A stretch of DNA of 63,246 nucleotides, filler included, from Globobulimina sp. (Eukaryota): assembly GCA_003354225.1 (NCBI GenBank). It is 44 parts of 44 records of this genome, joined end to end, with 100 filler letters (N's around TTAATTAATTAA, not from the genome) between each part and the next. Parts side by side here need not be neighbours in the genome. Positions count along the whole stretch, not along the records: positions 25,930 to 27,269 come from PIVH01018369.1; 43 more parts are not named here. One strand, 5' to 3'. The notes beneath the pieces were generated by a model. The model was not told the DNA's origin and did no database searches. It saw only the letters and a program-made list of their open reading frames with translations. Both the position numbers and the translations under genes were made by a program. Below, piece by piece: positions 23,348-61,907 of this stretch (position 1 is its first letter; each line of letters starts with the position of its first letter).

Positions 23348-24388
23348 TCATTGTTGTTGGTTACTGCCACAGTTCGTATTACCACAATGTATTAAATCAG
23401 TCATGGACAGATTTTTCCATATTTGCGCACATTTAAAACACCATTCTATCCCACAACTCGTGCATCTACATTTCCATTTTCTTATTGGCGCATTGCGAGG
23501 ATCCCTGCATTTTGGGCATGATTTTGTATCATTGATCAACATTTTCTCTTCTTCTCTCACAATATCAATGGGAACACCTACATTACCATTACCATTACAA
23601 TCACTATTTGGTTGTTTTATTAATGATTTTTTCCTTGCTTGGGATGGTAATAAATTACTATCCGCTCTCTTATGTTTATGTTTGTCAGCTGCAGCGGAGT
23701 GTTTTTTTTTCCCTTTCAACCTTACTTTGTATCCCTGCTTCAGAGCAATAATTTTATCTAAAATTGTCTCAAATTTATAAACGTCCATATTGCAAACATC
23801 ATAGCCATTGACAGCAGCAATAAACCATCCTTTTTTAACTCCGCATTCCTGCTTAAAAGCAGAACCATACTCATTTTTTTCAATATGATTTATCATTATT
23901 CCATTTATGGTCCCTTTTGGGGTGGGATCCCACCTCAAAAACTCACGTAAATCAATCGATAAACTGATTGTAATTTGGTTCTTTTCAGCTTTTATAATTC
24001 TAAATAAATCTAAAGACTGTCGACTTTGCATTCGCATCGAACTGTATATTTTCAATATCTTCTCTGGATTATTAAACTCGAAAATCTGTCTTTCCTTTTC
24101 CCATTTACAATATTTGCTGATCTCATATTTATTTTTGTGAGCAGTGTTCAATTTTTTCATCGATATTTGCTGATTCATTGCGTTTGTTGATTGTAAATAA
24201 AGTCTTTTATATTTCATCCAAATTAAATCATCCAGCTCCCATAACTTATCATGATACGTTCGAAACACAGTCAACATTTGCTGATAATTTTTAATTTTAT
24301 CTAAATTGAAAAACTTTGGCAAAATGCGCACTAAATCCAGCGGTTCGAATCTGCAGTATCCTCTATTATAAAATAAATACGTATTCAC
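23348..24388 (-). CDS. Protein with PDZ-like domain and C-terminal IBR/RING2-like zinc module, 5' partial
   Basis: GIMINHI...SAFKQECGVKKGWFIAAVNG (PDZ); TKSCPKC...CRCTSCGIEWCFKC...HC. Confidence 0.6.
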   Translation of the reverse strand: MNTYLFYNRGYCRFEPLDLVRILPKFFNLDKIKNYQQMLTVFRTYHDKLWELDDLIWMKYKRLYLQSTNAMNQQISMKKLNTAHKNKYEISKYCKWEKERQIFEFNNPEKILKIYSSMRMQSRQSLDLFRIIKAEKNQITISLSIDLREFLRWDPTPKGTINGIMINHIEKNEYGSAFKQECGVKKGWFIAAVNGYDVCNMDVYKFETILDKIIALKQGYKVRLKGKKKHSAAADKHKHKRADSNLLPSQARKKSLIKQPNSDCNGNGNVGVPIDIVREEEKMLINDTKSCPKCRDPRNAPIRKWKCRCTSCGIEWCFKCAQIWKNLSMTDLIHCGNTNCGSNQQQ

Positions 24389-25828: not shown

Positions 25829-25940
25829 CNNNNNNNNNNNNNNNNNNNNNNNNNNNNNNNNNNNNNNNNNNNNTTAATTAATTAANNNNNNNNNNNNNNN
25901 NNNNNNNNNNNNNNNNNNNNNNNNNNNNNTTAATGTAACT

Positions 25941-26118
25941 GCTTAGTTGCTTAGTTCGTAATCCCATGAATAATGTGCTTAGTTGCTTAGTTGCTTAGTC
26001 GATAATCACCATTTCTTTCAACATCTCAACTGATATAACTGATATATATATAGGTACTACACAAACTAGGCAAATTAAGCAAATTAACAGATTTGCTTAG
26101 TTGCTTAGTTGCTTAATT
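25941..26118 (+). repeat. Three clusters of octamer GCTTAGTT (8 copies) upstream of the H3-tail ORF
   Basis: Copies at 25941, 25949, 25977, 25985, 25993, 26095, 26103, 26111; inverted variants at ~26064-26080. Confidence 0.85.
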
Positions 26119-26157
26119 CATCAACATCTAAAAACTTCAACATATAAATATAAAACA

Positions 26158-26928
26158 ATGGCACGTACGAAACAAACTGCCAGAATGTCATCTTCGCCCA
26201 CAAAAAGTACCAGTCCACCACGTCGTTATAAACCACGTCGTTATCTAACAAAATGCACCGAAATAAAACAAATGATGAAAACAAATGATGAAGAGAAGCA
26301 AATTATTGTCAAAACTGATATGGTGAAATCAAAGAAATATTATGCTGATTTAATTAAAAAACAACCAAAAGGTCCGCCAAAAGTGGACAAATGTTTTTTA
26401 GCGGGTTTAAGAAAACCAATACGAATTAAAACTGGCGGAGAATTATTTATCATCAAAGAGCAACCTATGATTCATAACTATTTTGAATTTAAAGAATCAT
26501 ACTTTGTATTTGTCGTAGTTAATGGTAGTGATTTCAATAAAGTATTAAATACAATTTGTTTTCGAGCAAAAGATTTATGTTTTGGTGAATTAATATATAC
26601 AGCCGCACAAGAATTAGGTATTGAATTTATGGATTACGACGATCCAACCAATATTAAAAAAGAAAGAAAATTCCTTGAAGGTGTACAGTGGCCAATGTGC
26701 GATTATATTTATCAGAATGAGAAAGGTAAATTCTGTAAAATACAAATTACGACACGCTCGAGCGCAAATAATTTACCCGCATTAAAACCAGCCACAAAAT
26801 TTGGTAAATACACGCAAGTAAATATCATTTGGGCGCATCATCCTAAAAGCTGTAATGTCACTCCATACCCTCGAAATTATTGTGAAAATTTAAATAATTT
26901 AAATAATTTCAATATTGTGGGATTTTAA
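26158..26928 (+). CDS. Intronless 256-aa orphan with histone H3 N-terminal tail mimic (K9M) and non-histone body
   Basis: ATG in A-rich context (aaaacaATG); MARTKQTARMS then PRRYKP...EIKQMMKT; no histone-fold motifs downstream. Confidence 0.8.
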   Translation: MARTKQTARMSSSPTKSTSPPRRYKPRRYLTKCTEIKQMMKTNDEEKQIIVKTDMVKSKKYYADLIKKQPKGPPKVDKCFLAGLRKPIRIKTGGELFIIKEQPMIHNYFEFKESYFVFVVVNGSDFNKVLNTICFRAKDLCFGELIYTAAQELGIEFMDYDDPTNIKKERKFLEGVQWPMCDYIYQNEKGKFCKIQITTRSSANNLPALKPATKFGKYTQVNIIWAHHPKSCNVTPYPRNYCENLNNLNNFNIVGF

Positions 26929-27564
26929 TATGTTGTAATTAACTTAAACATTTATTCTCATCCTTGCACTGATAACTCGACAGATTAGTCAACAATTCAG
27001 GTTAATAGTCAGCAATCTGTATTAATAGGCAGCTACTCCAATTAATTGGGCGTCTACATTTTTTGATTTAAATTAAAGTGAAAGTTTTTTAATTAAATGT
27101 CGGATGGCGCCAATGTCAGCTTCAACATTCAACTCTTGCATGTAAGTTTAGTATCCCGACCTCTGTTTCATCGCTCAGATCTTCCATATCTGCTGTGAAT
27201 GTTTATATGCCAATCCATTACGAAAACACACCTCAGCGATTGATGCAAGAGCAATAACAGGAAGGAAGANNNNNNNNNNNNNNNNNNNNNNNNNNNNNNN
27301 NNNNNNNNNNNNNTTAATTAATTAANNNNNNNNNNNNNNNNNNNNNNNNNNNNNNNNNNNNNNNNNNNNGTATTGCATTAATGAATTATAATTATGTTTT
27401 TGCGAATTGTTCTATTTAATCTAAAATCTAAACATCCATCTTGTTCGCTATATAAATCTGATTTGTTCTGTTGATGACGACGAACATCCAATGTGATTTC
27501 AACGTGGTCTGACGCAAAGATGTTCAACTCAAAAATCTACTGACTATTTTCTCCTTAAATCAGC

Positions 27565-34633: not shown

Positions 34634-35905
34634 TCATTGACTTTGGAAATGATTGTATGTAACTCCAGGGAACAGTAATGGCCAGAATGCTGCAGATGGC
34701 CATTTTGGGCAAATTAGGATGCCCCGAGCTTGACATTCGATTATATGCTTCAAAGTGTCAGGGATGTAAGAAACAGGTGGGACCATCCAATTATTGTCCT
34801 TAGACCAGTCTTGAGCAAAGGCATTAATGCCAGAAGATCCTGGCTGCCAAAATCGACTGTAGAATTTAGGTAATTTTGTATTGTCACAAGAAGCAAAAAC
34901 ATCGCATGTGAAGGGGCCAAAGGCCTGAGAAAGCAAAACGAACCAAGCAGGGGCGACGGCCCAATCGTCCCAATCCAAAATACGGCTGCAATAATCAGCT
35001 GCTTCATTAAGTGAACGAGGTATCCACACAGCGTCCAATATAATGTGATGTTGTAAGCAGAGTTTAAAAATAGAAAATGCGATTTTGTGTAATACTGGAT
35101 TTGAGCTACCTTTGGTTAGAATTGTAGCTACTGCTTGATTGTCTGTCAGCCAAAGGACCCGGTGACCATATAATTGGGTAATGAAGCTTGCAAACCCAAA
35201 TTGCACAATTTGTAATTCCCGCCATGTAGAGCTCTCCTTCTGTTCTTCTGTAGTCCAAATGGTATGAGCGATCGCTACAGTATTATTAAGAGTGAGTAGA
35301 GCACCGGCACCAGTGGCACTGGCATCACTGAGGACCATGGTGTCAATGTGAATTGTAGGTATCAAAAAACGTAAATTTAAGGAAGGCAAAGTTGAGACCC
35401 AAAAGAAGATTTCTTCATAAGCACTGTCAGAAATGGTGAAGTGAGAATACCAAGATTTGCCGCGATCAATATCACCGTATAAGGCACGTGTATATAGATG
35501 TGCGATTGGTCCGAGAACAGGTAACATACTAATAAGCTTTCCCACAAAACGAGACAGATGGCGGGCAGTGACATGCCGGCGATTGTCAAGTATTGATTGA
35601 CCAAGCGCGGAAGTACTTGTGATTCGGCGTGTTGTAATAGAGATTGTGAAATTGGATAAATCGATGTGAAATCCAAGCCAGTCGATGGCTGAATTAGGTT
35701 CCCAAGAGCATTTTTCGGGTGATGTTGAAAAGCCAGCTTGATTCAGATCCCGCGCAACTAAAAAACTTGATCGGCGTAGCTCTATTTCAGTCCCAGCAGT
35801 AATAAACCCATCATCCAGATAAGTCACTATGCAGATTCCCAAGGACCGCCAATGCTTGACTATGCAGCGAAAAACTTTAGTAAATACATATGGTGAACAA
35901 GAAAG
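34634..35905 (-). mobile_element. DIRS-type tyrosine-recombinase retrotransposon pol: RT, RNase H, methyltransferase-like domain
   Basis: YLDD; SDASATG, WREL, TDNQ, WIPRSLNEAADYCSR; DVFAS..NTKLPKFYSR...NAFAQDW..PP...PKWPSA.FWP. Confidence 0.92.
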
Positions 35906-61710: not shown

Positions 61711-61907
61711 TTGTAGTATCAAATTGAGACAGATTAATATCGATATTGCTAATTACATTCCTTACAGACAATAATGATAAACAAAGAGTATTTACACTCA
61801 AATCAATNNNNNNNNNNNNNNNNNNNNNNNNNNNNNNNNNNNNNNNNNNNNTTAATTAATTAANNNNNNNNNNNNNNNNNNNNNNNNNNNNNNNNNNNNN
61901 NNNNNNN

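Follow-up and report, generated by a model that had tools for sequence, protein, structure and literature searches.

The window analysed here is a stretch of 63,246 nucleotides from the Globobulimina sp. assembly GCA_003354225.1, and at 26158-26928 on its plus strand it carries an open reading frame (ORF) whose product, P0001, begins with the N-terminal tip of histone H3, with methionine in the place of lysine 9. The ORF is a real, intact, lineage-restricted chimeric gene made up of 11 codons copied from H3 with M9, about 35 degenerate tail-like residues and a body of about 210 residues. We put at about 0.4 the probability that the gene encodes a real H3-tail mimic, possibly a K9 pseudo-substrate decoy.

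The reading frame, its H3 tip and its body

The ORF comprises 256 codons in the standard code and is intact. Between an upstream stop and the ATG at 26158 with which it opens there is no other in-frame ATG, and it closes with TAA at 26926-26928. None of 2000 shuffles of the contig matched the 256-codon length, the longest shuffled ORF being 147; at this length, far above chance, the frame is not a chance ORF. The table used to score codon usage came from eight ORFs of the window with Pfam support, which themselves score 0.175-0.263. The target ORF gives 0.157 in frame, compared with -0.27 and -0.53 out of frame.

P0001 begins MARTKQTARMSSSPTKSTSPPRRYKPRRYLTKCTEIKQMMKT. The H3 tip copy occupies 26158-26190 (+) and reads MARTKQTARMS, in which the start codon is followed by H3 residues 1-8 without a change, by M at position 9 and by S at position 10. 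Thus T6-A7-R8-M9-S10 equals H3 6-10 except for M9, which is encoded by an ATG at 26185-26187 (+), and H3 T11 is replaced by S. The earlier note had described the start of the ORF as H3 1-10 with a K9M exchange, and the translation agrees with it. Judged from the residues themselves, a copy of H3 1-8 and 10 right behind a start codon cannot be a coincidence. The best phmmer match in PDB is also H3 (7d69_A, E 0.065), in the tail region only.

Two sequence patterns known from other proteins coincide in this tip. MARTK at the first in-frame ATG on a non-histone body is the pattern of the H3TM proteins (initiator Met followed by A-R-[T/S]-K), and Met at the acceptor position inside a substrate motif is that of a Lys-to-Met pseudo-substrate. 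Compared with the H3 tail itself (ARTKQTARKS...), the agreement covers residues 1-8 and 10, with M at 9, and past residue 11 it is marginal. K9 methyltransferases read H3 residues 5-10. The corresponding QTAR-M-S of P0001 is retained like residues 1-4, and strong divergence sets in past residue 11. A tip that is kept next to a remainder that has diverged is the pattern expected were the tip the part that matters.

The junction of head and body was followed in contigs built separately from a public run, X1, which is possibly related to the source sample and is so not fully independent. X1 contigs span the whole stretch in question. One of them (record 2), gapless and 556 nt long, covers 26019-26574, from the upstream repeats to residue 139, at a depth of 14.6. 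It differs from the window at two positions only, 26144 in the upstream region and 26182, where AGA>CGA is a synonymous change of R8; a third X1 difference, at 26584, turns G143 into S. The ATG of M9, which the earlier note had singled out, is unchanged in this read-derived contig, so that the sole second haplotype retains M9 beside an adjacent synonymous change. Because the gapless contig carries both M9 and the synonymous R8 change, the fusion is not an assembly chimera, and neither the head-body junction nor M9 is an assembly artefact. The very fragmented assembly, the short contig and its repeated ends might otherwise point to a contig joined in error or a wrongly called base in codon 9, but either is very improbable. 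Two further runs from the same sample, X2 and X3, gave no contig over the stretch, which is not evidence of absence.

The body spans residues 46-256 (26293-26925, +), has a mixed helix/strand prediction and belongs to no known family; the Pfam search of P0001 returned no family at E<=1. Against five H3 proteins, residues 46-256 scored no better than shuffles, and tblastn of seven H3 proteins against the six frames of the contig reached the head only. The latter search led us to reject the idea that the body is a frame-shifted H3, and together with Pfam it sustains the proposal of the earlier note that the body is non-histone and not a divergent H3 or CenH3. A divergent H3/CenH3-type variant with a degenerate histone fold has in its favour that the top PDB match is H3, in the tail only. 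It is already contradicted by the lack of a match to Pfam Histone (PF00125) at E<=1, by the shuffle-level scores and head-only tblastn, and by a body of about 210 aa with predicted strands, and we find it scarcely credible.

Other searches gave little on the nature of the body. In the ESM Atlas the whole protein had no usable match, and the body had best values of 0.83-0.85 with phage hypothetical proteins and archaeal endonuclease/Hjc clusters, which lie under 0.9 and occur at chance frequency, so they are a lead only. A word-indexed protein search found no match to P0001 at near lengths and no candidate for residues 1-45 alone. Single-sequence AlphaFold2 models of the whole protein and of the body have mean pLDDT values of 31.0 and 30.8 and are unusable; with both models at a mean pLDDT of 31, the PB1/beta-grasp-like fold suggested earlier for the body has no basis.

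H3-tip starts in metagenomes and viral contigs

A back-translated MARTKQTARM pattern was scanned over metagenome contigs for M only, without a K control in the same collection, and 43 loci encoding this start were found. They divide into full-length uninterrupted H3 genes with M9 (16 loci, 12 distinct sequences), loci with CGTATGT at codons 8-10 (12), one locus that is H3-like to about residue 35 and then diverges (L017), non-histone ORFs of at least 100 aa (8), and short or cut loci (6, among them three fragments belonging to the L026 and L038 families described below).

The full-length H3K9M loci are L001, L004, L007, L010, L011, L016, L018, L022, L023, L028, L029, L030, L031, L034, L037 and L043. 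The 12 distinct proteins share 49-98% mutual identity, and M9 is kept between L007 and the 90%-identical L018/L043. On two of the contigs, those of L028 (22 kb) and L004 (134 kb), intronless ORFs are packed tightly on both strands. Among them are those for an SF1 helicase, an ERCC4/MUS81 nuclease and a tyrosyl-DNA phosphodiesterase, and such an arrangement could belong either to a giant virus or to a highly compact eukaryote.

The 8 non-histone loci fall into six unrelated families, represented by L006, L008, L013, L026, L012/L015/L019 and L038, and in all 8 MARTK stands at the first in-frame ATG. The ORF of L008 (955-2424, +) contains ankyrin repeats (E 8e-59) and that of L026 (3471-4562, -) has a weak WW match at its end. 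No Pfam family was found in the ORFs of L013 (1679-2701, +), L006 (1466-2092, +), L012 (1534-1833, +) and L038 (6787-7164, -), and none of the metagenome non-histone bodies resembles the body of P0001. Unrelated environmental eukaryotes thus appear to carry MARTKQTARM as well, on histone and on non-histone proteins, which favours the view of P0001 as a tail mimic.

Among proteins grouped at 90% identity, M9 is retained in all members of two clusters (3/3 and 4/4). For three entries (P0132, P0164 and P0166) the gene callers began at the internal Met9, which leaves 127-128-aa 'histones' without the first 9 residues; such mis-started entries can hide K9M variants in databases.

As a rough stand-in control from another collection, MARTKQTAR-x was counted in the viral collection IMG/VR. 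The 46 loci have K (38), R (5), Q (2) or H (1) as the next residue and M in none, and neither MARTKQTARM nor ARTKQTARM had a match there. Non-histone bodies follow the tip at two of the 38 K loci (L062 and L080) and at one of the two Q loci (L077). The L080 product is an AT-hook-like repeat protein, and its contig has a G+C of 18%.

A candidate H3K9 decoy and its rivals

If P0001 is a tail mimic of the proposed kind, its initiator Met would be removed, residue 2 being Ala; an Ala at position 2 makes removal of Met by methionine aminopeptidase likely. The free N-terminus ARTKQTAR-M-S would then be exposed as in H3 and recognised by H3-tip binders. Met9, which cannot be methylated, would together with S-adenosylmethionine (SAM) fill the lysine channel of a putative SET domain of the SUV39/Clr4/DIM-5/G9a type, by analogy with H3K9M and EZHIP, and as a soluble pseudo-substrate decoy the protein would lower H3K9 methylation. 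Alternatively, it might recruit such enzymes to the binding target of the body, whatever that may be. Such a role would be that of the dedicated anti-heterochromatin factor proposed in the earlier note. The sequence, the intact ORF, its codon bias, the read support for M9 and for the junction and the lack of a histone fold are shown by the analysis; that the protein is made, loses its Met, reaches the nucleus, binds and inhibits, and that M9 is under any selection, is inference.

Histones with K-to-M changes are familiar from tumours, as mutations, and from the laboratory, as tools. The H3K9M oncohistone, engineered or tumour-derived, traps Clr4/SUV39/G9a, and sequestration of Clr4 by H3K9M is described in PMC8167812. 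The QTAR-M-S of P0001 is identical to it and likewise lies at a true N-terminus. In contrast to the oncohistone, P0001 is germline-encoded, has no histone fold, cannot enter nucleosomes and lacks K14.

The closest parallel in logic is EZHIP (CXorf67), which inhibits PRC2 via a K27M-like peptide according to PMC6513997 and which is, like P0001, a cellular non-histone protein with a Lys-to-Met copy of an H3 methylation site. The site in P0001 is K9 and not K27, and the enzyme would be another one. Its copy is N-terminal and exact at residues 1-8 and 10, whereas in EZHIP the peptide lies inside the protein and is no more than H3-like. The two proteins have no sequence relationship, and the function of EZHIP has been demonstrated, while that of P0001 is a proposed one.

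Short H3-tail motifs on non-histone proteins are also found in viral mimics such as influenza NS1, SARS-CoV-2 ORF8 and the hepatitis delta virus (HDV) antigen (PMC6028506 and PMC10208167), where they serve to engage the chromatin machinery of the host. These motifs have 4-5 residues (ARSK/ARKS), lie inside the protein or at its C-terminus and retain the lysine. Nothing marks the contig of P0001 as viral. The environmental MARTKQTARM proteins (L006, L008, L013, L026, the L012 and L038 groups, and H3 variants such as L007, L010 and L034) share the 10-residue start, M9 and the position at the first ATG. They differ in that their bodies are unrelated to that of P0001 and to each other, and they come from other organisms with a G+C of 0.43-0.60.

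A literature search, with subscription papers and supplements outside its reach, found no 'K9M-like' or 'H3K9M-like' wording and no germline-encoded K9M protein or H3K9M variant. Otherwise it turned up only viral mimics and studies of K-to-M changes that were engineered or came from tumours, and among natural non-histone proteins EZHIP was its only K-to-M-type inhibitor. On the decoy reading, P0001 would combine H3 N-terminal mimicry with K-to-M pseudo-substrate logic.

The points that weigh against a K9 decoy come from the databases, from the known biochemistry and from the locus itself. P0001 has no relative at E<=0.001 in a HMMER search of 1.84 billion representative proteins, its exact sequence is absent from a collection of 15 billion proteins, and there is no paralogue inside the window. 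No relative was found on viral contigs in IMG/VR either, which leaves P0001 without the mark of giant-virus or mobile-element cargo. In two of the 90%-identity clusters M9 is a minority beside K9 (2/11 in one; 1/12 plus two entries starting at that Met in the other), and a scan for M alone, with no K control, suggests that non-histone bodies may be enriched behind M9. In vivo, trapping of Clr4 by K9M is linked to H3K14 ubiquitylation in PMC8167812, and K14 is missing from P0001.

To the same side belongs the finding that fusions of the H3 tip do not require M, because K and Q forms on non-histone bodies exist among the viral contigs. The three loci in which K or Q takes position 9 (L062, L080, L077) are what one would expect if the tip of P0001 were only a tag of the H3TM kind. 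On that account A1-R2-T3-K4 docks tip readers and writers (PHD fingers, NuRD-type complexes, K4 methyltransferases, import factors) to the body or the body to them, position 9 is merely unmodifiable and no methyltransferase is inhibited. Non-histone proteins starting A-R-T/S-K, VRK1 among them, bind H3K4 readers and NuRD according to PMC8166343 (Chen et al. 2021), and P0001 has the features that define H3TMs there, being a non-histone protein that opens with an initiator Met and then A-R-T-K. According to the same text, however, H3TMs need and share about 4 first residues with H3, whereas P0001, an unrelated protein from another organism, retains residues 5-10 as well, and its sole change in residues 1-10 is at the methyl acceptor. 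The tests made here agree with a tag as well as with a decoy. We consider a mere tag improbable.

Further objections are found in the DNA behind the tip. The approximately 35 residues after it are basic, rich in Ser/Pro and H3-tail-like in a degenerate way. They contain a PxRY+P...EI+ motif colinear with H3 38-57. When the resemblance was scored without residues 1-10, with 500 shuffles per H3 protein, the observed score was reached by 0 shuffles against L010, 7 against L030, 28 against L029, 67 against L034 and 127 against L007. The likeness of PRRYKP...EIKQMMKT to H3 38-57 stressed in the earlier note therefore stands as far as colinearity goes and beats shuffles for some H3 proteins, and it does not for L034 and L007. 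Past residue 11 the resemblance to H3 is marginal; descent of residues 11-45 from an H3 tail is plausible.

Part of this region consists of repeats. A 15-bp direct duplication at 26218-26244 (+), CCACGTCGTTAT-AAA-CCACGTCGTTAT, encodes PRRYK-PRRY and contains the PxRY+P that resembles H3 38-43. A perfect 13-nt tandem duplication at 26265-26292 (+), AAAACAAATGATG in 2.2 copies, joins the frames of head and body, since 13 bases shift the frame, and the 'KT' of EIKQMMKT is the product of its second copy. When one copy is deleted in silico, a stop closes the head ORF after 51 residues, and the frame of the body has an ATG of its own to start from (MHRNKTNDEEK...). The duplication is present in both haplotypes seen, with no gap in the X1 contig. 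A third repeat, AATTTAAAT in 3.1 copies at 26887-26914 (+), encodes the C-terminal NLNNLNNFN, so that two further slippage repeats lie in the ORF besides the 13-nt one. As the 13-nt duplication is perfect, the fusion of head and body is suggested to be young, and the tail after residue 11 is, by its sequence, remodelled by slippage, which argues against a long-selected function.

The read data also show that the locus is not simple. X1 depth is 14.6 over the 5' half and 7.4 over the 3' half, and an X1 junction, 26574>26794, skips 219 nt. Given the two-fold difference in depth and the skip, there is a second version of the locus that differs from the first, and the locus sits among repeats.

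These features would suit a young neutral chimera, which is the main rival. On that account a piece of an H3 gene, with its promoter, its 5' end and some of the tail, came to lie upstream of an unrelated ORF and decayed through deletion and slippage, the frames were joined by chance in the recent 13-nt duplication, and K9M is a decay mutation in a product with no selected function. Besides the dependence of the fused frame on a perfect duplication and the two other repeats, this account draws on a tail that is scarcely recognisable past residue 11, an orphan body, repeats on both flanks together with the second locus version in X1, and a G+C at third codon positions (GC3) of 0.23, under the 0.30-0.51 of the conserved window ORFs. 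It does not sit easily with the unevenness of the decay, which would have left residues 1-8 and 10 intact while the next 35 were scrambled, nor with 256 codons that stay open in AT-rich DNA with an in-frame codon bias along their length. The second haplotype has the same fused frame with a synonymous R8 change, and the M-bearing tip recurs on other non-histone proteins. We regard neutrality as possible, leaning towards doubtful.

The origin of M9 could also be a different one. In many H3 genes codon 8 is split by a phase-1 intron, and H3 exon 1 alone (MARTKQTA plus the first base of R8) may have been captured by exon shuffling or retrocopying, so that M9 would be a junction residue and not a K>M change; this concerns origin only and fits any function. 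The metagenome loci bear on it directly. Eleven of the 12 CGTATGT loci (L003, L005, L009, L020, L021, L027, L035, L039, L040, L041 and L042) are read as ordinary H3 genes whose R8 codon is interrupted by a phase-1 intron, C|GTATGT, and hence as false positives, a further mark against the decoy, and in the twelfth, L025, an H3-like continuation follows in frame. The intron is a systematic source of error in translation-based K9M scans. With 11 of the 43 loci of this type, exon 1 of H3 genes often ends there, and the H3 identity of P0001 likewise stops at residues 10-11. On the other side, S10 matches H3 and S11 is conservative for T11, the colinear PxRY+P...EI+ motif beats the shuffles against L010 and L030 (not significantly so against L034 and L007), and the R8 codon of the gene is AGA, with no GT at the junction. 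A junction origin of M9 is distinctly unlikely in our view.

For the tail mimic, a wider claim could be made. P0001 would then do for K9 what EZHIP does for K27, as an inhibitor that is encoded in the genome and dedicated to H3K9 methyltransferases, within a repeatedly evolved and undescribed class of K9M-tail proteins (H3 variants or ankyrin, WW and orphan bodies) used by eukaryotes or their parasites to switch off heterochromatin. We hold this to be unlikely. If it were true, cells or selfish elements would regulate H3K9 methylation through pseudo-substrate inhibition, and a soluble natural K9M tail would be a ready-made genetic tool. The metagenome scan suggests that the design is not unique to P0001, and the question is approachable in several lineages. 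Should the gene be a young neutral chimera, it would be a small example of gene birth by slippage, of little wider interest.

The source contig and the rest of the window

The window strings together, in order of length, about 44 contigs of 1339-1341 bp, with N44-TTAATTAATTAA-N44 linkers every ~1440 bases (1342-1441, 2783-2882, and so on to 61808-61907). It is not contiguous genome: neighbouring contigs are unrelated, synteny is unreadable, and ORFs running into a linker are join artefacts. For this reason the gene's entire known context is its source contig at 25930-27269, 1340 bp between two artificial linkers, and the LYR-motif protein, the dynein fragment and others next to it in the window are not its genomic neighbours. 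The contig holds no second complete gene, and on 1340 bp the absence of viral or transposon linkage is uninformative.

The average G+C of the contigs is about 31% (32% for the target contig), and long uninterrupted ORFs in the standard code encode axonemal dynein, FancD2, RICTOR-like, ABC transporter and Spherulin4 domains. From the base composition and the long ORFs, including that for axonemal dynein, the source is, as far as sequence goes, an AT-rich flagellated eukaryote with few introns. The best named match of the dynein fragment has 45% identity only. A ciliate-type stop reassignment was considered and rejected, as conserved ORFs of the window reach about 440 codons without an in-frame stop in the standard code. 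Rfam and tRNA scans of the window found nothing at the target locus and one tRNA match elsewhere.

Upstream of the gene, the region 25940-26115 (+) contains the octamer array mentioned in the earlier note, which we located as three short TGCTTAGT arrays at 25940-25956, 25976-25999 and 26093-26115. A repeat search added 9-nt repeats at 26028-26046 and 26062-26087 (+). A 15-mer of the TGCTTAGT array has 5 matches in the window, where 0.03 are expected, and all are on the target contig. The upstream region is probably repeated in the genome, because its read depth in X1 (26-42) exceeds the 14.6 over the ORF.

Diverged copies of both flanks are present in X1. The 3' flank, 27134-27260, matches a second, diverged X1 contig (record 8) with 15 differences in 127 nt and has raised depth, as a contig-end repeat. 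At 27098-27148 (+), about 170 nt past the stop of the target, an ATG is followed by 15 codons (MSDGANVSFNIQLLH) and then GTAAGT, possibly exon 1 of a following gene and its canonical 5' splice site; the sequence from 27134 onward is repeated in X1.

Two other ORFs of the window, which lie on other contigs, deserve mention. The one at 23348-24388 (-) has weak matches to a mitovirus RNA-dependent RNA polymerase (E 0.002) and an IBR zinc finger (E 0.0015), both under the Pfam cut-offs. The one at 34634-35527 (-) matches a Dam-type N6-adenine DNA methyltransferase (E 3e-8) and, weakly, a reverse-transcriptase RNase H (E 6e-4), and it may belong to a retroelement carrying a DNA methyltransferase.

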